A DNA stretch of 64,000 nucleotides from Kofleriaceae bacterium. Lineage in GTDB: Bacteria > Myxococcota_A > Polyangia > Haliangiales > Haliangiaceae. Below are positions 3,729-63,492 of the stretch, piece after piece. Position 1 is the first letter of the stretch. Each line of letters begins with the position of its first letter. A program made the position numbers and the translations under genes. Below the pieces are notes generated by a model that had not been told where the DNA came from, made no database searches, and was given only the letters and a program-made list of their open reading frames with translations. The stretch spans positions 16,242-80,241 of the forward strand of contig DASTLB010000022.1 of the NCBI GenBank assembly GCA_035715365.1, written 5' to 3'.

Positions 3729-5993
3729 GTGGCGAGGACGAAAGACTCGGCAGCCGGCAAGCCCGCGGTCCAGCTCGGGCGCGCGCTCGCATCCCCGGCC
3801 GGCGTGCTCGTCACGATCCCGCTGCTCGTGATCGCGGTCGGCGTCGGGATCCTGCTGCTCGGGCGCGATGCGACGCGGACGAGCGCGCACCAGCTCGCGC
3901 GCGGCCAGCTGACCGAGCAGGCGCTGCGCGTCCAGTCCGATGTCGCGTTCGCGCTCGATCAGGCGGATCCGCTGATGGCGCGCGTCGACACGCTCGCGGA
4001 TCCGGCGATGCCCGTCGAGGAGCGGCTCGTGCGGCTGCACGATCTGATCATCGGCCGTCCGGGCGTCTCGTACCTCAGCATCAGCTTCCCCGACGGCAGC
4101 TTCTATCACTCGAACGCGACGCGCGACGGCAAGGTCGAGGTCCAGCAGAGCGTGATCACCGATCACGGCACGCAGGTGAACTGGTTCTCCGTCGACGGCG
4201 GCCGCCTCGTGCCGCTGCGAAACAAGATCACCGACTACGATCCACGCAAGCGCGGGTTCTACCAGCTCGCGGTCAAGACCCGCGCCCGCGCGTGGACCGA
4301 GCCGTACACGTTCTTCCTCTCGCACGAGACCGGCATCACGTGCACGCAGCCCGTGTTCAACGCCGACCACACGCTGCGCGCCGTGCTCACCGTCGACTTC
4401 GATGTCTCCGCGCTGTCGAGCTACGTCGCGAAGCCCGCGCTCGATCAGGCGCGCTCGATCGTCTACAGCGGCAACGGCGTCGTGCTCGCGTATCCGACGG
4501 CCGACCAGCTCGCGGTGCCGAACAGCGACAAGCTGCTGACGCGCGAGGACCTCAAGGATCCCGCGCTCGACGCGCTGTTCGGCGCACCGCCGTCGCCGGA
4601 GCTCCACTTCCTGCAGCTGTCGACGCGCGACGGTGCGTACCTCGCATCGGTCGCGCCGATCGGTGGCCGGCGCGCCGGCGTCCAGGTGCCGCTCGACTGG
4701 TACGTCGCGACGCTCGTGCCCGAGCGGACGCTGCTCGGCCCGACCCGCCGTCTCGAGCAGACGAGCGCGCTCGCCAGTGCCGGTGCGCTCGCGATCGCGG
4801 TCGCGCTCGCGCTCGTGCTCGCGTGGAACTTGCTGCGCATGCGCCGTCAGGTCGCGGCGTCGCGCGAGGAGGCGCGCACCGCACAGGCGCGTGCCCGCGA
4901 GCTCGGCAGCTACCGGCTCGTGGCGAAGCTCGGCGCCGGCGGCATGGGCGAGGTGTGGCGCGCCGAGCACCGCATGCTCGCTCGCACCGCCGCGATCAAG
5001 CTGATCCGCCCCGATGCGCTGCGCGATCCGGACTCCGTCGAGGAGATCCGCGAGCGGTTCCGCCGCGAGGCCCAGACGCTCGCGTCGATGCGGTCGCGCC
5101 ACACGATCGCGATCTACGACTACGGCGTCACCGAGGCCGGCGTCTTCTACTACGTGATGGAGCTGCTCGAGGGCCTCGACATGGAGTCGCTCGTCATGCA
5201 GTACGGCGCGCAGCCGGCGGCGCGCGTGATCCAGCTGATGATCCAGGCGTGCGCGTCGCTCGCCGAGGCACACGAGGCCGGTCTGCTCCATCGCGATATC
5301 AAGCCGCCGAACCTGTTCGTCAGCCGCGCCGCCGACGAGCTCGACATCGTCAAGCTGCTCGACTTCGGCATCGTCCAGACCGTGACCGGCGAGCCGCATC
5401 CCGCCGAGCGGGCGCGCGCGCTGATCGATCCATCGCCGCTACCGACGACGACCGACAAGCTGACGCAGCTCGGCGCCATGCTCGGCACGCCCGGGTTCAT
5501 GGCGCCCGAGCAGATCCTCGGCATGCAGCTCGACGGCCGCGCGGATCTCTACGCGCTCGGCTGCGTCGCGTGGTGGCTGCTCGAGGGCAACGAGGTGTTC
5601 AAGCGCGAGGGCGCCGAGGCGAAGATCCTGCACAAGCACATCTACGAGCCGGTGCCGCCGCTGCGCGAGCGCGTGCGCGGCTGGTGCCCGCCCGAGCTCG
5701 AGGTCGTGCTCGCGTCGTGCCTCGCGAAGGATGCCGAGCAGCGGCCGGCGAACGCGCGTGCGCTCGCGGCGATGCTGCGCGCGATCCCGATCCCGCCCGA
5801 GCATGCGTGGACCGAGGACCGGGCGCGCGCATGGTGGGAGGCGTACAAACCGGCGCACGTCGTGACCGATGCCTCGACGGGCGAGGTCCAGGTGATCATG
5901 CCGGGCCGCACCGAGGAGCGGCCGCTCGCGGCGACGAGCGAGGACGCGATCGGTCCGACGATCGCCGAGCCGATCCGCCGCCGCACGAGCTGA
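3729..5993 (+). CDS. Ser/Thr protein kinase with N-terminal periplasmic Cache-like sensor flanked by two TM helices
   Basis: Hanks kinase motifs: GAGGMGEVW, AIK, HRDIKPPN, DFG, GTPGFMAPE; TM segments LVTIPLLVIAVGVGILLL and ALAIAVALALVLAW bracket a ~290-aa extracellular domain; GTG start 3729 with GGAG 11 nt upstream. The 5' part of track ORF 3243..5993 is a frame artefact overlapping the phosphatase. Confidence 0.8.
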   Translation: MARTKDSAAGKPAVQLGRALASPAGVLVTIPLLVIAVGVGILLLGRDATRTSAHQLARGQLTEQALRVQSDVAFALDQADPLMARVDTLADPAMPVEERLVRLHDLIIGRPGVSYLSISFPDGSFYHSNATRDGKVEVQQSVITDHGTQVNWFSVDGGRLVPLRNKITDYDPRKRGFYQLAVKTRARAWTEPYTFFLSHETGITCTQPVFNADHTLRAVLTVDFDVSALSSYVAKPALDQARSIVYSGNGVVLAYPTADQLAVPNSDKLLTREDLKDPALDALFGAPPSPELHFLQLSTRDGAYLASVAPIGGRRAGVQVPLDWYVATLVPERTLLGPTRRLEQTSALASAGALAIAVALALVLAWNLLRMRRQVAASREEARTAQARARELGSYRLVAKLGAGGMGEVWRAEHRMLARTAAIKLIRPDALRDPDSVEEIRERFRREAQTLASMRSRHTIAIYDYGVTEAGVFYYVMELLEGLDMESLVMQYGAQPAARVIQLMIQACASLAEAHEAGLLHRDIKPPNLFVSRAADELDIVKLLDFGIVQTVTGEPHPAERARALIDPSPLPTTTDKLTQLGAMLGTPGFMAPEQILGMQLDGRADLYALGCVAWWLLEGNEVFKREGAEAKILHKHIYEPVPPLRERVRGWCPPELEVVLASCLAKDAEQRPANARALAAMLRAIPIPPEHAWTEDRARAWWEAYKPAHVVTDASTGEVQVIMPGRTEERPLAATSEDAIGPTIAEPIRRRTS

Positions 5994-51295: not shown

Positions 51296-51997
51296 GTGGG
51301 CTTCGCGCTGGCCGTCGGGCGAGTGTGTGTGGATACTGCGCGTGTGACCGGACGGTTCTTCACCGCGGATTATGTCGAGCGCGCCACGTTGCGCGATGGC
51401 ACGCGCGTCGTGCTCCGGCTCGTCACACCCGACGACAAGACGCTGCTGCGCGATGGCTTCGAGCGGCTGTCGGATGCGTCGCGCTACTCGCGGTTCCTCT
51501 CACCGAAGCTCGCGTTATCCGACGACGAGCTCGCGTACCTGACCGAGATCGATCAGGAGAACCACTTCGCGCTCGGCGCGATCCACGAGGATGCGGGCAT
51601 CGGCCTCGGCGTCGCGCGGTTCATCCGGCTCGCCGAGGATCCGACGGTCGCCGAGGCAGCGGTCGCGGTCGCCGACGAGATGCACGGCCGCGGGCTCGGC
51701 AAGCTGCTGTTCCTCCGGCTGTGCGCGGCGGCGTCCGAGCGCGGGATCGAGCGGTTCCGCTGCGACGTGCTCGGCTCGAATCGCCACATGGCCGCGCTGC
51801 TCGCGCAGATCTCGGTCGATCGCAAGATCGAGGTCGGCGAGGGCGTGATGTCGATCGATCTCGGGCTACCAGACGTCGCCCCGGACCAGCCGTGGAACGC
51901 GCCGGTGCCGCAGAATCCGGTCTACGGCCTGCTGCGGGCCGCGGCGCAGAACGCGGTCGAGTTCACCGAGTCGGTTCGCAACCTGTGGCGTCGATAG
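51296..51997 (+). CDS. GNAT-family N-acetyltransferase
   Basis: …EMHGRGLGKLLFLRLCAAASERGIERF… acetyl-CoA binding motif; several alternative GTG starts between 51296 and 51344. Confidence 0.65.
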   Translation: MGFALAVGRVCVDTARVTGRFFTADYVERATLRDGTRVVLRLVTPDDKTLLRDGFERLSDASRYSRFLSPKLALSDDELAYLTEIDQENHFALGAIHEDAGIGLGVARFIRLAEDPTVAEAAVAVADEMHGRGLGKLLFLRLCAAASERGIERFRCDVLGSNRHMAALLAQISVDRKIEVGEGVMSIDLGLPDVAPDQPWNAPVPQNPVYGLLRAAAQNAVEFTESVRNLWRR

Positions 51998-52062
51998 TCA
52001 CGGCGTCGAGTTGATCGCGCCTGCCCTCCGGACGATCGTGCCGGTCACAGAGGGAGGGACTC

Positions 52063-52929
52063 ATGTTTGTCATTCTCGGAGCGAACGGAAACACCGGCTC
52101 GGTCGTCGCCAGCACGCTGCTCGCGCGCGGCAAGAAAGTCCGCGTCGTCGCGCGTGATGCCGCGAAGGTCGAGGGCCTGCGCAGCAAGGGGGCCGAGGTC
52201 GTCACCGGAGACGTGCTCGACTCGTCGAGCATGACGCGCGCGTTCGAGGGCGCCGAGGGCGCGTACCTGCTGACGCCGCCGGACAATGCCTCGAACGATC
52301 TCGTCGGCCGCGGTCGCAAGATCATCGACGCGTACCTGCAGGCGATCGACGCTGCCGGCGTCCGCCACGCCGCGCTGCTGTCGTCGGTCGGCGCGCAGCT
52401 GCCGTCTGGCACCGGTCCGATCGTGATCACGCACTACGCCGAGACCACGCTCGCGAAGGCGAAGCAGGCGAAGCTCACGTTCGTGCGCGCCGCGTACTTC
52501 ATGGAGAACATCCTCAACTACGCGCACGCGATGAAGAACGACGGCGTGCTGCCGGTGTTCGGCGGTGGCGAGAGCTATCCGTTCCCGATGGTCGCGACGC
52601 GCGACATCGGCGAGGTCGCCGCCGAGGCGCTGCTGAACCCGCCGGCGAGCACCGAGGTCGTCGAGCTGATGGGCCCCAAGGAGTACAGCTTCGCCGACGC
52701 CGCGTCGGAGGCGTCGCAGATCCTCGGCCGCGAGGTCAAGCCGATGGTGCTGCCGCTCGACGCCATGGTGCCAACGATGATGCAGTTCGGGATCTCGCAG
52801 AACGTCGCGGGTCTGTATCGCGAGATGACCGAGGCGTTCGGTACCGGCAAGGTCGGGTTCGAGGGCAAGGGGCGCACGGTGCGCGGCAAGGTCACGCTCG
52901 GCGAAGTGCTCCGCGCCGGACTGCGCTGA
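52063..52929 (+). CDS. NmrA-like / atypical SDR NAD(P)-binding protein
   Basis: MFVILGANGNTGSVV Rossmann N-terminus; GGGAGGG RBS. Confidence 0.75.
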   Translation: MFVILGANGNTGSVVASTLLARGKKVRVVARDAAKVEGLRSKGAEVVTGDVLDSSSMTRAFEGAEGAYLLTPPDNASNDLVGRGRKIIDAYLQAIDAAGVRHAALLSSVGAQLPSGTGPIVITHYAETTLAKAKQAKLTFVRAAYFMENILNYAHAMKNDGVLPVFGGGESYPFPMVATRDIGEVAAEALLNPPASTEVVELMGPKEYSFADAASEASQILGREVKPMVLPLDAMVPTMMQFGISQNVAGLYREMTEAFGTGKVGFEGKGRTVRGKVTLGEVLRAGLR

Positions 52930-57662: not shown

Positions 57663-57986
57663 TCAGCGACGCGTGAGCCCCCACAGCAGGCCCAGCTCGC
57701 GATCGAGCAGCTCGCGTGCGCGTTCCGCGTGCAGCGTGACGCCCCACGCTTCGGCGAGATCGAGCCCGCTCTGGATCTCGTTCGCACTACCGTGCGCGAT
57801 CGTGAAGAACCGCTTCGGATCGCGGCCCGCTCGGCGCGCGCCTTCGCCGACGTTGAGGACGACGCTGTTCGCAGCGCGACGTACCTGATCGGCGAGATCG
57901 GGATCGTGCTTGTTGAGCTCCTCGACGATCGGGCGCAGCGCGCGAACGAGGTCGAGACCTACGGTGTATGCGGCGAAGTTCTTCAT
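57663..57986 (-). CDS. Four-helix-bundle protein (TIGR02436 / PF05635, 23S-rRNA-IVS / bAvd-like), copy 1
   Basis: 107 aa; ...RAANSVVLNVGEGARRAGRDPKRFFTIAHGSANEIQSGLDLA... family pattern; GAAAGGAA RBS; upstream part of track ORF is an antisense repeat artefact. Confidence 0.7.
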   Translation of the reverse strand: MKNFAAYTVGLDLVRALRPIVEELNKHDPDLADQVRRAANSVVLNVGEGARRAGRDPKRFFTIAHGSANEIQSGLDLAEAWGVTLHAERARELLDRELGLLWGLTRR

Positions 57987-58284
57987 GACGGGCCATTCCT
58001 TTCTTTCCCCAAGCTCCTCCGGCCTCCCGGAGCGGGCTCGGCTCTCGCCCGAACGCGGCCGCCGCGCGGGAGCCGTGACGAGCGCCCGCACCACCGTGCG
58101 CGCTCTGATCCGGCGTTCATCTGTGCGGCGGCGATTCGCGTGACGTCGGCGCCGGTGGCGCTCGGCGCGGCGCACGCGCCAGGCGGACGCGAGGGCGAGC
58201 CGAGCCCGCGGAGGGCCAGAGCACGAGTCGAGGATCTGGGCGCGTTCGCCGATGAGCCAGTGATCCCGCGAATCGTGATCGATT

Positions 58285-58440
58285 CCGGCCGCGACCGATG
58301 CCGTCACCGATACCGATGCCGTCACCGACACCGATGCCGATGCCGTCGCCGCGACCGATGCCGTCACCGATGCCCTCGCCGCGACCGAGGCCGTCACCGC
58401 GGCCGACGCCGTCACCGCAACCGATGCCGTCGCGGCGGCT
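58285..58440. repeat. Microsatellite-like tandem repeat, ~18-bp unit (CCGATGCCGTCACCGAYA), ~8-9 copies
   Basis: Seen in sequence; translates as (PMPSPx)n on plus and (DGIGxG)n on minus, both within non-credible ORFs. Confidence 0.6.
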
Positions 58441-58580
58441 CTCGTGCGTCGCACGGAGGTCGCGCATCAACCGGCGACTCGCGCTCGCGGAACGGGCGCG
58501 ATCCGGCGCACGCCTCGACGGTGATTCGCGGGCCCTCGCGCGAGCTGCTTTGCGACGGCTCGGTCGGCTCGCTCGTGCGG
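58441..58580. repeat. ~135-bp direct repeat, copy A (partner copy B at 59251..59385; degenerate copy C ~58105..58150)
   Basis: By-eye alignment of CTCGTGCG.CGCACG...TCGCGCATC...TCGCGCTCGC.GAACGGGCGCGATCC.GCGC.C.CCTCGACGGTGATTCGCGG... shows ~75-80% identity between copies A and B. Confidence 0.5.
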
Positions 58581-58766
58581 CGAGTGTTGCCTCGTTCGGC
58601 AGCCGGTCATGCATCGCGGCCATGGCGCCTCCTTCGAGGCGGCCTGGCGCGCACCGAGGCACGCCGCGCGCACCGCGACCGCTGCAGAGCGCGGAGCGCT
58701 TCGATTCGCAGCGCGCGTCATGCCTCGTGCGCGCCGGACGGCCGCTGATCTCGAAAGGAGGCTCTC

Positions 58767-59090
58767 ATGGCCTTTGATGCATATGACCGTTCGCTCGAAC
58801 TTCTGCACCTGATCGCCGCACTGCTCAAGAAGCTCGCCAAGCGCGACGCCGACCTCGCGAAGCAGCTACGTCGCGCTGCGCACAGCGTGCCGCTCAACAT
58901 CGTCGAGGCAAATCGGCGCACCGGACAGGATCGCGCCCATCTGTTCCGCGTCGCGCTCGGCTCCGCCGCCGAGGTCGGCGGCTGCCTCGATGTCGCGGTC
59001 GCGCTCGCGTACGTCGAGCCCCACGAGGTCGAGTCCGCGCACGCGCTGCTCGATCGCGTGCGCGCGATGACCTACCGGCTATCGCGGTAA
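58767..59090 (+). CDS. Four-helix-bundle protein (TIGR02436 / PF05635, bAvd-like), copy 2
   Basis: 107 aa; ...RAAHSVPLNIVEANRRTGQDRAHLFRVALGSAAEVGGCLDVA...; AAAGGAGG RBS 7 nt upstream; paralog of 57663..57986. Confidence 0.75.
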   Translation: MAFDAYDRSLELLHLIAALLKKLAKRDADLAKQLRRAAHSVPLNIVEANRRTGQDRAHLFRVALGSAAEVGGCLDVAVALAYVEPHEVESAHALLDRVRAMTYRLSR

Positions 59091-59171
59091 GCCGCGGCGC
59101 CGGCGCGCGCGCCGCCGGCGTCGCGGCCCGCGCATCCACGGCAATGACGATCGGCGGTTTCAGGTGCAAGC

Positions 59172-59240
59172 CGAAACATGGGTGACGTTTTAGACCGGAC
59201 ACATGGGTAACAATTCAGACCGACGACATGGGTGACGCCA
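59172..59240. repeat. Three copies of ACATGGGTRAC spaced exactly 25 bp apart (iteron-like)
   Basis: CATGGGTGAC at 59177, CATGGGTAAC at 59202, CATGGGTGAC at 59227; relatively AT-rich non-coding DNA downstream of the four-helix-bundle gene. Confidence 0.55.
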
Positions 59241-59476
59241 TCGCCGCGACTCTCGTGCGGCGCACGCGAGCTCGCGCATCGCGCCCGCTGGCTCGCGCTC
59301 GCAGAACGGGCGCGATCCAGCGCGCACCTCGACGGTGATTCGCGGCGCGTGCGCCGGCTGCTTCGCGGACTATCGGCGTTTTCAAGTCGATCGCATCGTC
59401 GGTCACCGCGGCCGCTACCGTCACCCCGACGGCTGCCAACCGTGAACGGTGAACCTGAACCGGAATACGGAATCAT

Positions 59477-62639: not shown

Positions 62640-62841
62640 CGTGCACGCGCTCACATGTCTGCCGGAATGGGCAGGTGTGCCGTGGTCTCGTCGAGAACTG
62701 CGGGGCGTTTGGCCTCGCGACGTGATTCTGTGGCGTGAACGCGACGATCACGCGGTCACAGTCGCGTTCACGATCCGGAGCATGCGTGAACGATCTCGAC
62801 GAGTCATGGCACTGGCACGCTGGATGCTGGAAGATACGTCC

Positions 62842-63492
62842 ATGCTTCGATCCATCCTACCTGCCCTGTTTGCTGCGACCCTGGCCGGCGGTTGTTATGC
62901 AACGACCTCCGGCGGCGTCGCGTACAGCGGCTCGGTGACGGCGACCACGGTCGCGCCTGACCTCGTCTACGTGGGTCCGGGCGTCCAGGTGATCGCCGAC
63001 TACGACGAGCCGATCTTCTACTCGGACGGCTTCTACTGGCGGTATTACGGCAACACCTGGTACCGCTCGAGCTACTACACCGGCGGCTGGGTCTACGCGT
63101 CGCCGCCGCGCGCAGTGCTGAGCATCAACTCGCCGCACACGTACGTGCGCTACCGGCCGAACGGCTGGCGGCCGCGCAACGGTGGCTACCGCAACGACGG
63201 CGCGTACGTGCGCGACCATCGCGACTCGCCGCCGGTGTACCGCGACGATCGTCCGGTCGTGCGCGACCATCGCGATCCCGCGCCGCCGGTGTATCGCGAT
63301 GATCGCCCGGTCGTGCGCGACCATCGCGATCCCGGCCCGCCGGTCTACCAGCAGCCGCAGCGCGACAACCGCCCGGTCGAGCGTGACCATCGCGACAACG
63401 CGCCGGTCGAGCGCGACCACCGCGACAACCGCCCGGTCGAGCGCGACCACCGCGACAACAAGCCGACGGTGCCCGTCCGCGACCACCGCTAG
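62842..63492 (+). CDS. Lipoprotein with Tyr/Trp-rich domain and C-terminal RDHRD tandem repeats
   Basis: MLRSILPALFAATLAGGC lipobox; start could also be ATG 62824; C-terminal ~54-bp and ~27-bp DNA tandem repeats encode PVVRDHRDPAPPVYRDDR x2 and PVERDHRDN x3. Confidence 0.55.
   Translation: MLRSILPALFAATLAGGCYATTSGGVAYSGSVTATTVAPDLVYVGPGVQVIADYDEPIFYSDGFYWRYYGNTWYRSSYYTGGWVYASPPRAVLSINSPHTYVRYRPNGWRPRNGGYRNDGAYVRDHRDSPPVYRDDRPVVRDHRDPAPPVYRDDRPVVRDHRDPGPPVYQQPQRDNRPVERDHRDNAPVERDHRDNRPVERDHRDNKPTVPVRDHR

Follow-up and report, generated by a model that had tools for sequence, protein, structure and literature searches.

A divergent pair of PF05635 genes from Kofleriaceae: probable members of a dispersed, hairpin-led family of units in Myxococcota

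Two small genes of the four-helix-bundle family PF05635 (S23p) face away from each other in repeat-rich DNA, and the question raised by this locus is whether they are the remains of a retroelement, a small mobile cassette, or something else. The stretch analysed (64,000 nt, referred to here as the window) is from a Kofleriaceae (Myxococcota) MAG. Orphan ORFs of PF05635 are scattered across many bacterial genomes and, to our knowledge, no function has been established for the family in the ~30 years since rRNA intervening sequences were described, the exception being Avd in DGRs. A first-pass annotation proposed either a decayed retroelement remnant, a small mobile cassette, or an undescribed repeat-associated use of the protein. 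The features of the locus are as follows.

57663..57986 (−): four-helix-bundle gene copy 1, 107 aa plus stop (PF05635, 1.3e-12; TIGR02436, 6e-14)
57987..58260 (−): copy 1 leader, a long imperfect hairpin (inverted repeat I2, arms 58032-58066 and 58175-58209)
58288..58439 (no strand): hexamer-period array upstream of copy 2 (TRF; 18-/30-nt higher-order units of CCGAYG/CCGTCA type)
58423..58554 (+): repeat A, between the array and the copy 2 hairpin, paralogous to repeat B
58594..58800 (+): copy 2 leader hairpin (MFE −133 kcal/mol, z = −7.2; R1 match; covariation)
58767..59090 (+): four-helix-bundle gene copy 2, 107 aa plus stop (PF05635, 2.8e-18; TIGR02436, 2.6e-18)
59083..59132 (+): GC-rich tail hairpin immediately 3′ of the copy 2 stop codon (palindrome I4)
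59163..59236 (+): lone terminus of an IS481-family insertion sequence, which carries three ACATGGGTRAC sites phased at 25 nt
59234..59367 (+): repeat B, sharing 82% identity with A, with 2-3 array-like hexamers at its start, abutting the IS end
59402..59437 (no strand): hexamer-array remnant of 36 nt downstream of copy 2, 81% identical to 58393-58428

The annotation of a divergent pair of 107-aa paralogs of PF05635/TIGR02436 was upheld, as both proteins exceed the curated cut-offs for PF05635 (33.8 bits; copy 1, 48.3 and copy 2, 66.5 bits) and TIGR02436 (24 bits; 52.2 and 66.2 bits). The two share 43% identity, and copy 1 is of a divergent type, having 50% identity with its best match among the related loci compared. 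Neither an exact-sequence look-up of the two proteins nor PADLOC returned a match. The predicted ribosome-binding sites are present (AGGAGG 7 nt upstream of the copy 2 ATG, and AAAGGAA for copy 1), and the spacers of 780 bp and 386 bp are non-coding, as had been proposed, since they show no codon-position GC signal while the flanking genes have a GC3 of ~0.95. Three minus-strand ORFs in the spacers (263 aa, 181 aa and 134 aa) were rejected because they lack a GC3 signal, and an apparent minus-strand RBS and ATG at 58622 correspond to the anti-SD/anti-start arm in the copy 2 hairpin. Sigma-70 promoters and intrinsic terminators were not found in the 57.5-59.6 kb region, and an ECF-like spacing in the hairpin loop (GAAC-N22-CGTC) was a poor fit by inspection. 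Searches with Rfam at gathering score found nothing in the window, neither rRNA nor any other family, and at E <= 5 gave only chance miRNA matches and a sub-threshold match to sbcD RNA (RF01757). The latter was rejected (23.8 bits against a gathering threshold of 40), and covers the IS stump and repeat B.

The main conserved feature is one that the first-pass annotation did not contain, a hairpin formed by the leader and 5′ end of copy 2. Its 3′ arm holds the SD and ATG together with the first ~8 codons, its 5′ arm is complementary to them, and its apical stem is GCCGCGCGC/GCGCGCGUCA. Model R1 matches this leader at 58608-58781 with 96.5 bits. Across the family the hairpin is ~175-200 nt long with an invariant apex, GCGCGCGUCAC, and it matches no described Rfam family. 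In units from Kofleriaceae and Haliangiales, the hairpins have z-scores of −4 to −13, and 13-18 of the 18 SD/AUG nucleotides are paired to a site ~135-145 nt upstream. Covariation in this cis-element, in which the SD, start codon and second codon are all paired, is unusually strong: RNAalifold gave compensatory changes in 21 of 35 pairs, while in a CM alignment of 34 sequences both-sided changes occur in 26 of 36 hairpin pairs (the observed score was reached by none of 500 shuffles) and 92.8% of cells are paired, compared to 76% in shuffles and 31-58% when slid. The 5′ arm follows the choice of ATG or GTG as start and the identity of the second codon, and what is conserved is the asymmetric bulges and the apical sequence rather than a perfect palindrome.

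The hairpin model also matches upstream of copy-1-type genes at other loci. In the window, the copy 1 leader is degenerate (fold z = −1.25, with only a partial, 10-bit R1 match); its hairpin carries a GCUCGUCACGG motif resembling that of the family hairpin, but pairing of the SD is weak and its sequestration not clear, and a canonical hairpin is lacking. MFE folds of the Polyangium and Sorangium leaders lack the SD-sequestering geometry described above. An integron attC site was considered for the hairpin and rejected by inspection, there being no RYYYAAC/GTTRRRY cores and no integrase among the neighbours, and the hairpin being the gene's own 5′ end.

In IS10 and IS50, the SD and start codon of the transposase gene are paired with a complementary stretch further upstream, leaving read-through transcripts untranslated (fold-back inhibition). 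The units described here likewise have an upstream complement pairing with the SD and start codon, although the stem is far longer (~35-60 bp in segments) and the gene is not a transposase. If the whole leader is transcribed, the hairpin would keep the ORF untranslated in the same manner, and translation would require a transcript initiated within the hairpin, or else that the stem be cleaved or melted. RNase III may also act on the stem, as it does in rRNA intervening sequences.

A second hallmark of the family is the hexamer-period array. The 18-bp microsatellite noted previously is a tandem array (58289..58431) of period 18, sub-period 6 and 7.9 copies, and it matches arrays at most related loci. 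Arrays adjoin nearly every related unit, starting directly beside both the leader and tail hairpins, and of 120 arrays, 100 are no more than 600 bp from a unit. Up to that distance from units, arrays make up 10-23% of the bases, compared to 0.4-0.8% at 1-4 kb and none further out, and 41 kb of unit-free Kofleriaceae DNA contained no arrays. Array length and repeat unit differ between near-identical loci (L005 and L006, and among Sorangium strains), and PF05635 units are tightly associated with hypervariable hexanucleotide arrays. The orientation of arrays relative to the gene is variable, and a fixed direct or inverted relation between the two flanking arrays was rejected, as both arrangements are common.

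Together these elements give a canonical order of hexanucleotide array, leader hairpin, PF05635 ORF of 105-108 aa, GC-rich tail hairpin (an equivalent is present in most related units, judged from the tails of all loci compared) and second array, a defined and recurrent architecture for PF05635 genes. Related loci (76) were found in Kofleriaceae/Haliangiales, Anaeromyxobacter, Polyangium and Sorangium, within a data set that covers ±4 kb around each locus and one genome for each species; most of these genomes are MAGs, with assemblies that break at these repeats, and the family accounts for recurrent contig breaks in MAGs of Kofleriaceae and Haliangiales. Units occur singly or as divergent (head-to-head) or convergent (tail-to-tail) pairs, and some copies are frameshifted. 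Genomes carry several units, at non-orthologous positions between unrelated host genes, and pairs have been duplicated as units within genomes. Copies from the same genome are 85-99% identical in protein sequence, compared to 69-84% for the best matches in other genomes, and the homology between them extends from the 5′ edge of the hairpin into the arrays, where it stops, with unrelated flanks. The closest relatives of the window genes lie in other genomic contexts, one of them (L220) carrying the same two paralogue types arranged tail-to-tail. Orthologues of the flanking 659-aa gene were found in relatives that do not have the gene pair, but gene order there is too scrambled (70% identity) to define an empty site.

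The explanation we consider probable is that the two genes are units of a dispersed, Myxococcota-wide cassette family, with hairpin-gated translation and kinship to the rRNA intervening sequences that carry PF05635 genes, and that they are not the remnant of a DGR. Such intervening sequences, with an S23p (PF05635) ORF, are found in the 23S rRNA genes of Coxiella, Leptospira and Brucella (PMC4990558). That of Coxiella has been described as a selfish element, with its SD in a stem cut by RNase III and short tandem repeats before the ATG of the PF05635 ORF (PMC4990558). The units resemble these elements in protein family, in an ORF tied to a long, stable inverted-repeat stem with the SD in double-stranded RNA, in the short tandem repeats beside the start codon (heptamers in Coxiella), and in having no enzyme of their own, the intervening sequences being considered selfish. 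They differ in being intergenic, between protein genes, rather than inside rRNA helices 25 or 45 (the window has no rRNA), in a hairpin that lies upstream and includes the start codon instead of a stem surrounding the whole ORF, in their extended hexamer arrays and their presence in several copies in each genome, and in ORFs that are under purifying selection (median dN/dS of 0.14), unlike the decaying ORF of Coxiella. By this explanation, units may have spread or been homogenised inside genomes, behaving as small cassettes of a selfish or semi-autonomous kind. The arrays, which are prone to slippage, would act as their variable borders and might also provide portable homology in recombination or gene conversion. 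As the family is present in culturable genera (Sorangium, Polyangium and Anaeromyxobacter), expression control, nucleic-acid binding and mobility are all directly testable.

Alternatively, the genes could be ordinary host genes, a paralogous family of small four-helix-bundle proteins with a nucleic-acid-binding or regulatory role, controlled by a leader RNA acting in cis (through autoregulation, thermosensing or RNase III), spread by ordinary duplication and with neutral arrays accumulating in long non-coding flanks. Purifying selection is strong even between same-genome paralogues with dS up to ~1.2, and the dN/dS value fits a protein that benefits the host as well as one that serves itself. 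In Sorangium strains a convergent pair occupies one syntenic locus, a stable arrangement suggestive of a host gene passed on vertically, and the two paralogue types remain adjacent across genera. No target-site duplications, pairs of empty and filled sites, transposase or RT were found at units, and we know of no mobilising enzyme for them. Against this stand the 30- to 50-fold enrichment of arrays, which begin at the hairpins on either side, and copies that cluster by genome, with sharp homology edges and neighbours that are unrelated between loci. The frameshifted copies, the lack of the pair at the orthologous site in relatives and the occurrence of PF05635 genes as cargo of selfish insertions (rRNA and cas loci) point the same way, and we consider this alternative unlikely.

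A more speculative form of the cassette explanation, quite unlikely on present evidence, would make the hairpin and PF05635 ORF a new kind of self-propagating cassette, one lacking a transposase. Its Avd-fold protein would recognise the unit's own leader hairpin, in the form of RNA or of single-stranded DNA, and bring in a polymerase, RT or recombination system encoded elsewhere, the unit being copied into arrays, or the arrays being made at its borders, in a telomerase-like manner, by reiterative copying of a short template. If true, this would account for the orphan PF05635 insertions in rRNA helices, cas operons and intergenic DNA throughout bacteria.

The hairpin could instead act at the level of DNA, the imperfect palindrome of ~200 bp forming a cruciform or single-strand hairpin (a site for recombination, replication or protein binding), with the arrays as by-products of replication stalling and slippage at the hairpins and the occlusion of the SD incidental. 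Mismatches of G-U (36) and A-C (28) type are tolerated about equally in the stem, so that selection on RNA and on DNA cannot be told apart by these counts and the strand assignment of the hairpin is indecisive. The placement of arrays directly against leader and tail hairpins, and their variation in length and unit between near-identical loci, would suit such an element, as would L076, where a single perfect palindrome lies between two divergent genes. On the other hand, the pairing falls exactly over the SD, start codon and first codons, and co-varies with ATG/GTG usage and the second codon, as predicted by a translational function; moreover, bulges and apex are conserved and a perfect palindrome is not maintained. 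We regard such a DNA-level role as improbable.

Returning to the favoured explanation, two of the repeat classes that had been singled out at this locus are not features of the family. The three ACATGGGTRAC motifs phased 25 bp apart were confirmed (59176, 59201 and 59226) and are absent elsewhere in the 64 kb. Elements of 1.3-1.45 kb encoding an IS481-type transposase have this motif pair at each of their inverted ends, and the window sequence aligns at 85-91% to the ends of four of these (L087, L095, L117 and L121); a further reference element (L116) encodes a DDE (rve) transposase that has the leucine zipper and HTH of IS481. By its sequence, the phased motif thus belongs to an IS481-family element, and is unrelated to the four-helix-bundle units. 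IS481-family elements have, like the window end, subterminal GACATGGGTRAC sites 25 nt apart, but the window has three sites instead of two and one end only. A search of the window for an IS481 transposase gave a best tblastn E of 0.85 and a second IS end was also not found, which makes this a solo end.

The 135-bp direct repeat is real (82% identity over 135 columns, E = 8e-30), although the coordinates given earlier were ~17 nt off. No further copies were found in the window, and the degenerate third copy that had been reported was not recovered, the best extra alignment scoring 23-30 compared to 142 for A against B. It was proposed that the pair forms the boundaries of a mobile cassette carrying copy 2, and two direct copies do bracket this gene. 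Nothing similar was found, however, at 83 related loci or in the two closest relatives (L219/L220), and the A/B core pattern had 0 matches in metagenome contigs. Repeat A sits inside the unit, between array and hairpin, repeat B abuts the IS stump, and homology between same-genome copies elsewhere ends in arrays and not at repeats of this type, all of which makes a boundary function very improbable. On sequence comparison the repeat is local to this genome, and B, lying beside the IS stump, looks like a local duplication or the leftover of a neighbouring unit. It is rather likely that the locus was disturbed after its formation by insertion of an IS481-family element, leaving the stump, and by local duplication of the 135-bp sequence. 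The suggestion of a small mobile cassette or undescribed repeat-associated use was thus right in direction and wrong in its reasons, the family-wide features being the hexamer arrays and the covarying hairpin.

A DGR has an RT gene beside that of Avd, template and variable repeats (TR/VR) that differ only at template adenines, and a VR at the 3′ end of a target gene. As the first-pass annotation had noted, no RT turned up among the 40 ORFs of the window (the best 25 of 50 Pfam families and all 24 PADLOC families), and neither loci L001-L007 nor the 102 nearest neighbours of related units contained one; the neighbours also included no recurrent partner gene. Mismatches between A and B are not adenine-specific, as had been observed (G>A 5, G>C 4, A>G 4 and others, plus 4 indels), and involve all four bases.

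The proteins themselves are nearer to stand-alone S23p proteins than to Avd. The AF2 monomer model of copy 2 (pLDDT 96.5) is an up-down bundle of four helices, and a fold search with it gave TM-scores of 0.88-0.90 for 2RLD (BT_0352) and 0.82 for 2GSC (XCC0516), the latter also being a PDB profile match. Identity to these stand-alone proteins, which are the closest solved relatives and are of unknown function, is 23-30%, while bAvd, a DGR accessory protein (4DWL/8UB7), has TM-scores of 0.83-0.85 but just 11-13% identity. XCC0516 and BT_0352 have no hairpin or array context on record, in contrast to the units described here. The RxxxSxxxNxxE motif is common to XCC0516, BT_0352 and both window proteins, and is part of the conserved S23p motif GxxRxxxSxxxNxxE (PMC3936711). 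It reads RRAAHSVPLNIVE in copy 2 and RRAANSVVLNVGE in copy 1, and alignment A1 shows no variation at S40, N44 or E47.

The small, mildly basic bAvd thus shares the four-helix-bundle fold with the window proteins, and a repeat pair flanks copy 2, but it can hardly be that these genes are orphaned Avd genes of a decayed DGR or other retroelement and A/B a former template/variable pair, given an architecture without RT, TR/VR-type repeats or target gene, A and B both lying in non-coding DNA and missing from all related loci, purifying selection on the ORFs and the closer identity to S23p proteins. Lone Avd-like genes should not, accordingly, be annotated as DGR remnants.

Two divergent 107-aa ORFs, as described in the first-pass annotation, are present in the window, which has a GC content of 70%. 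Both exceed the curated cut-offs of the PF05635 and TIGR02436 profiles, share 43% protein identity and carry the RxxxSxxxNxxE motif described for the PF05635 family (PMC3936711). The spacers were called non-coding, and indeed neither shows the codon-position GC signal seen in the flanking genes. The locus is real and unusual, and belongs to an apparently undescribed variant of PF05635 elements, in which a unit comprises a four-helix-bundle ORF, a leader hairpin, a tail hairpin and flanking hexamer arrays; here, an insertion sequence (IS) stump and a putative local duplication overlie the unit locus. The features are:

2–949, DrmC-like PLD (medium or weak PADLOC match)
57663..57986, minus strand, four-helix-bundle copy 1, 107 aa
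58289..58431, hexamer array upstream of copy 2 (TRF)
58594..58800, copy-2 leader, one long hairpin (−133 kcal/mol, z = −7.2)
58767..59090, plus strand, four-helix-bundle copy 2, 107 aa
59163..59236, IS481-family end with three sites, aligning to IS481-type ends
59402..59437, array remnant of 36 nt downstream of copy 2

Copy 2 is modelled with confidence as a four-helix bundle (pLDDT 96.5), nearest to BT_0352 and XCC0516 (TM 0.82–0.90, 23–30% identity), with bAvd ranking after these (TM ~0.83–0.85, 11–13% identity). A Kofleriaceae (Myxococcota) MAG encodes, on a 620-kb contig, a protein with 100% identity to copy 2. Myxococcota of soil and sediment contain hundreds of relatives of copy 2 at 60–80% identity. 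Scanning species-representative genomes gave 76 loci (Kofleriaceae/Haliangiales MAGs, Anaeromyxobacter, Polyangium and Sorangium), several of them sharing a genome with others and many lying at contig ends. The median dN/dS of unit ORFs is 0.14, and likewise in within-genome comparisons, indicating that the proteins are functional; some gene copies have frameshifts. Profile searches of six-frame ORFs revealed three arrangements: head-to-head pairs of the kind in the window, pairs placed tail-to-tail at a distance of 65–90 bp, and single genes. The two nearest relatives of copy 2 have contexts differing from that of the window. One, a 76% relative (L220, 2179–2739), has both paralogue types, including a copy-1-like gene in tail-to-tail arrangement, and a (GCCGAT)21 array located upstream; the other (L219, 353–1925) adjoins Ntox16 (toxin) and DUF6714 genes. 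At four loci (L001, 5136–6405; also L002, L003 and L009) a 150-aa gene for HAD_SAK_2, an RNA-repair-associated HAD, separates the four-helix-bundle gene from the array upstream, and is possibly additional unit cargo.

About 130 nt ahead of copy 2 are conserved across loci. The leader hairpin at 58594..58800 was overlooked in the first-pass annotation. Its 3′ arm contains the Shine-Dalgarno (SD) sequence, the ATG and roughly the first eight codons; the 5′ arm is complementary. In an alignment of 26 loci, 21 of the 35 consensus pairs show compensatory changes. A covariance model of the hairpin (R1) finds it before all copy-2-type genes of Kofleriaceae/Haliangiales loci (89–157 bits), and also before copy-1-type genes of loci outside the window (67–99 bits); the copy-1 leader in the window is degenerate. 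When 34 sequences are aligned to the model, pairing holds in 92.8% of cells, compared with 76% when shuffled and 31–58% with slid partners, both-sided changes occur in 26 of 36 pairs, and none of 500 shuffles attained the observed covariation score. The choice of start codon (ATG or GTG) is mirrored in the 5′ arm (CAT or CAC, respectively), as is that of the second codon (GGC/GCC, GGT/ACC, GCG/CGC), and the apical stem is near-invariant (GCCGCGCGC/GCGCGCGUCAC). In Kofleriaceae/Haliangiales units, 13–18 of the 18 nt from −15 to +3 are paired to a partner 131–145 nt upstream (z −4 to −13), a geometry not seen in MFE folds of Polyangium and Sorangium leaders, though these are structured. The unit architecture and the covariation are demonstrated, and the placement of the start site within the stem suggests that the hairpin may gate translation. 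Stem mismatches are about equally G-U (36) and A-C (28), so the sequence is compatible with selection on RNA or DNA alike. An Rfam search of the window gave no counterpart of the leader hairpin. A GC-rich hairpin lies directly 3′ of each ORF. A marginal R1 match at 51985–52161 (22 bits, E = 0.036), distant from the four-helix-bundle genes, is probably noise. In a low-GC MAG (L076, 3885–3974), a near-perfect palindrome of ~85 nt separates divergent PF05635 genes and holds the Shine-Dalgarno sequences of both (z = −11 to −14); the association of hairpin and PF05635 may therefore extend outside Myxococcota.

The 18-nt microsatellite noted previously was recovered by TRF with a sub-period of 6 nt, and such hexamer-period arrays are a hallmark of the family. 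Nearly all units are flanked by them (TRF; period 6, 12, 18, 24 or 30 nt; 70–780 bp), usually starting 15–70 nt past the stop codon and ending ~150–250 nt ahead of the start codon, in no fixed orientation and with a repeat unit that varies by locus (CCGAGT, CCGACG, CCGATG, CCGCTT, CGCGTC, TGC and others). By a purpose-made lag-6 detector, arrays cover 10–23% of bases 1–600 bp from a four-helix-bundle gene, 0.4–0.8% at 1–4 kb and none beyond; 100 of 120 arrays have such a gene no more than 600 bp away, and none was found in 41 kb of unit-free Kofleriaceae DNA (three loci). Some arrays of Polyangium and Sorangium are also found between ordinary genes. Two near-identical loci (L005 and L006) have arrays of unequal length. 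Four Sorangium strains (L055, L056, L059 and L067, 3500–5220) keep one tail-to-tail pair at a syntenic mid-chromosome locus with ORFs 96–100% identical, while the flanking arrays (101–304 bp) differ in unit and length, and so the arrays behave as hypervariable VNTRs; their origin is a matter of inference. In Anaeromyxobacter (L034, L038 and L039, ~3900–4000), hexamer repeats lie in frame after the ATG (MSPTPAPDRAPAPNP...) and would give the protein a Pro/Thr/Ala-rich N-terminal extension.

In most Kofleriaceae/Haliangiales MAGs, same-genome copies are 85–99% identical, against 69–84% for the best match in another genome. Their homology opens at the hairpin's 5′ edge, spans the ORF and dies away inside the arrays, with unrelated flanks. 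Whole pairs are also duplicated (L020 and L071, 1.6 kb, 86%; L034 and L038), and in relatives the spacing beside orthologues of the flanking 659-aa gene is 10–80 nt, against 1.86 kb in the window. This pattern suggests that the units may be mobile; counted against mobility are the syntenic single locus kept in Sorangium and the lack of an empty site or target-site duplication among the loci compared.

A DGR-like remnant, one of the earlier suggestions, can be set aside. As noted then, no RT is nearby (the 40 window ORFs match ordinary Pfam families and no PADLOC RT model), and the 102 nearest neighbours of units elsewhere match 142 families, most commonly protein kinases and histidine kinases, without an RT, transposase or other recurrent partner. 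The 135-bp direct repeat does occur in two copies, A (58423..58554) and B (59234..59367), 82% identical over 135 columns (blastn). Mismatches between the copies involve all four bases, and there are four indels. This agrees with the earlier view that differences are not adenine-specific, and the copies are therefore not a DGR template/variable pair. No further copy was found in the 64 kb (blastn), and the degenerate third copy was not supported. The possibility that A or B recurs with other four-helix-bundle genes failed: counterparts are absent from 83 related loci, from the closest relatives L219 and L220, and from metagenome contigs. Repeat A follows the array and precedes the hairpin; repeat B opens with array-like hexamers, abuts the IS stump, and may be a local duplication or a remnant of a neighbouring unit.

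The three ACATGGGTRAC sites, 25 nt apart, are as first described, with no other in the 64 kb. More than 120 metagenome contigs among the matches listed, and 12 viral-collection (IMG/VR) contigs, contain ACATGGGTRAC-N14-ACATGGGTRAC, frequently near contig ends and with inverted copies 1.25–1.4 kb apart. One contig (L116, 1–1498, 1498 bp) carries the motif pair at each end and encodes in between a 408-aa protein with LZ_Tnp_IS481, HTH and rve domains, its best NCBIfam match being an IS481 family transposase. The element in these contigs (L087–L218) is ~1.3–1.45 kb, has two GACATGGGTRAC sites 25 nt apart per end, and is abundant in soil metagenomes. Since neither transposase nor second end was found in the window, 59163..59236 is an IS481-family solo end that has no relation to the four-helix-bundle genes. 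A weak Rfam sbcD RNA match across the stump and repeat B (59148–59327, 23.8 bits; gathering score 40) was judged to be chance.

PF05635 ORFs are also known as Avd of DGRs, as insertions in CPR rRNA genes, and within cas operons. The rRNA intervening sequences with PF05635 cargo have hairpin boundaries, are cleaved by RNase III and are considered selfish; that of Coxiella has the SD within the cleaved stem and heptamer repeats ahead of the ATG (PMC4990558). The present units share with these the protein family, a hairpin link and adjacent tandem repeats, but are set apart by their location, the geometry of the hairpin, the hexamer arrays, the number of copies and the selection acting on them. 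No description of this unit architecture was found in the literature.

Elsewhere in the window, PADLOC gave, among the large ORFs, medium or weak matches to an IetA-like AAA ATPase (6e-27), mad2 (1.5e-20), CARF_2OG and the DrmC-like PLD, and within ORF 62641..63492, coding sequence at 63187–63459 is tandemly repeated with units of 54 and 30 nt (PVYRDDRPVVRDHRD...).
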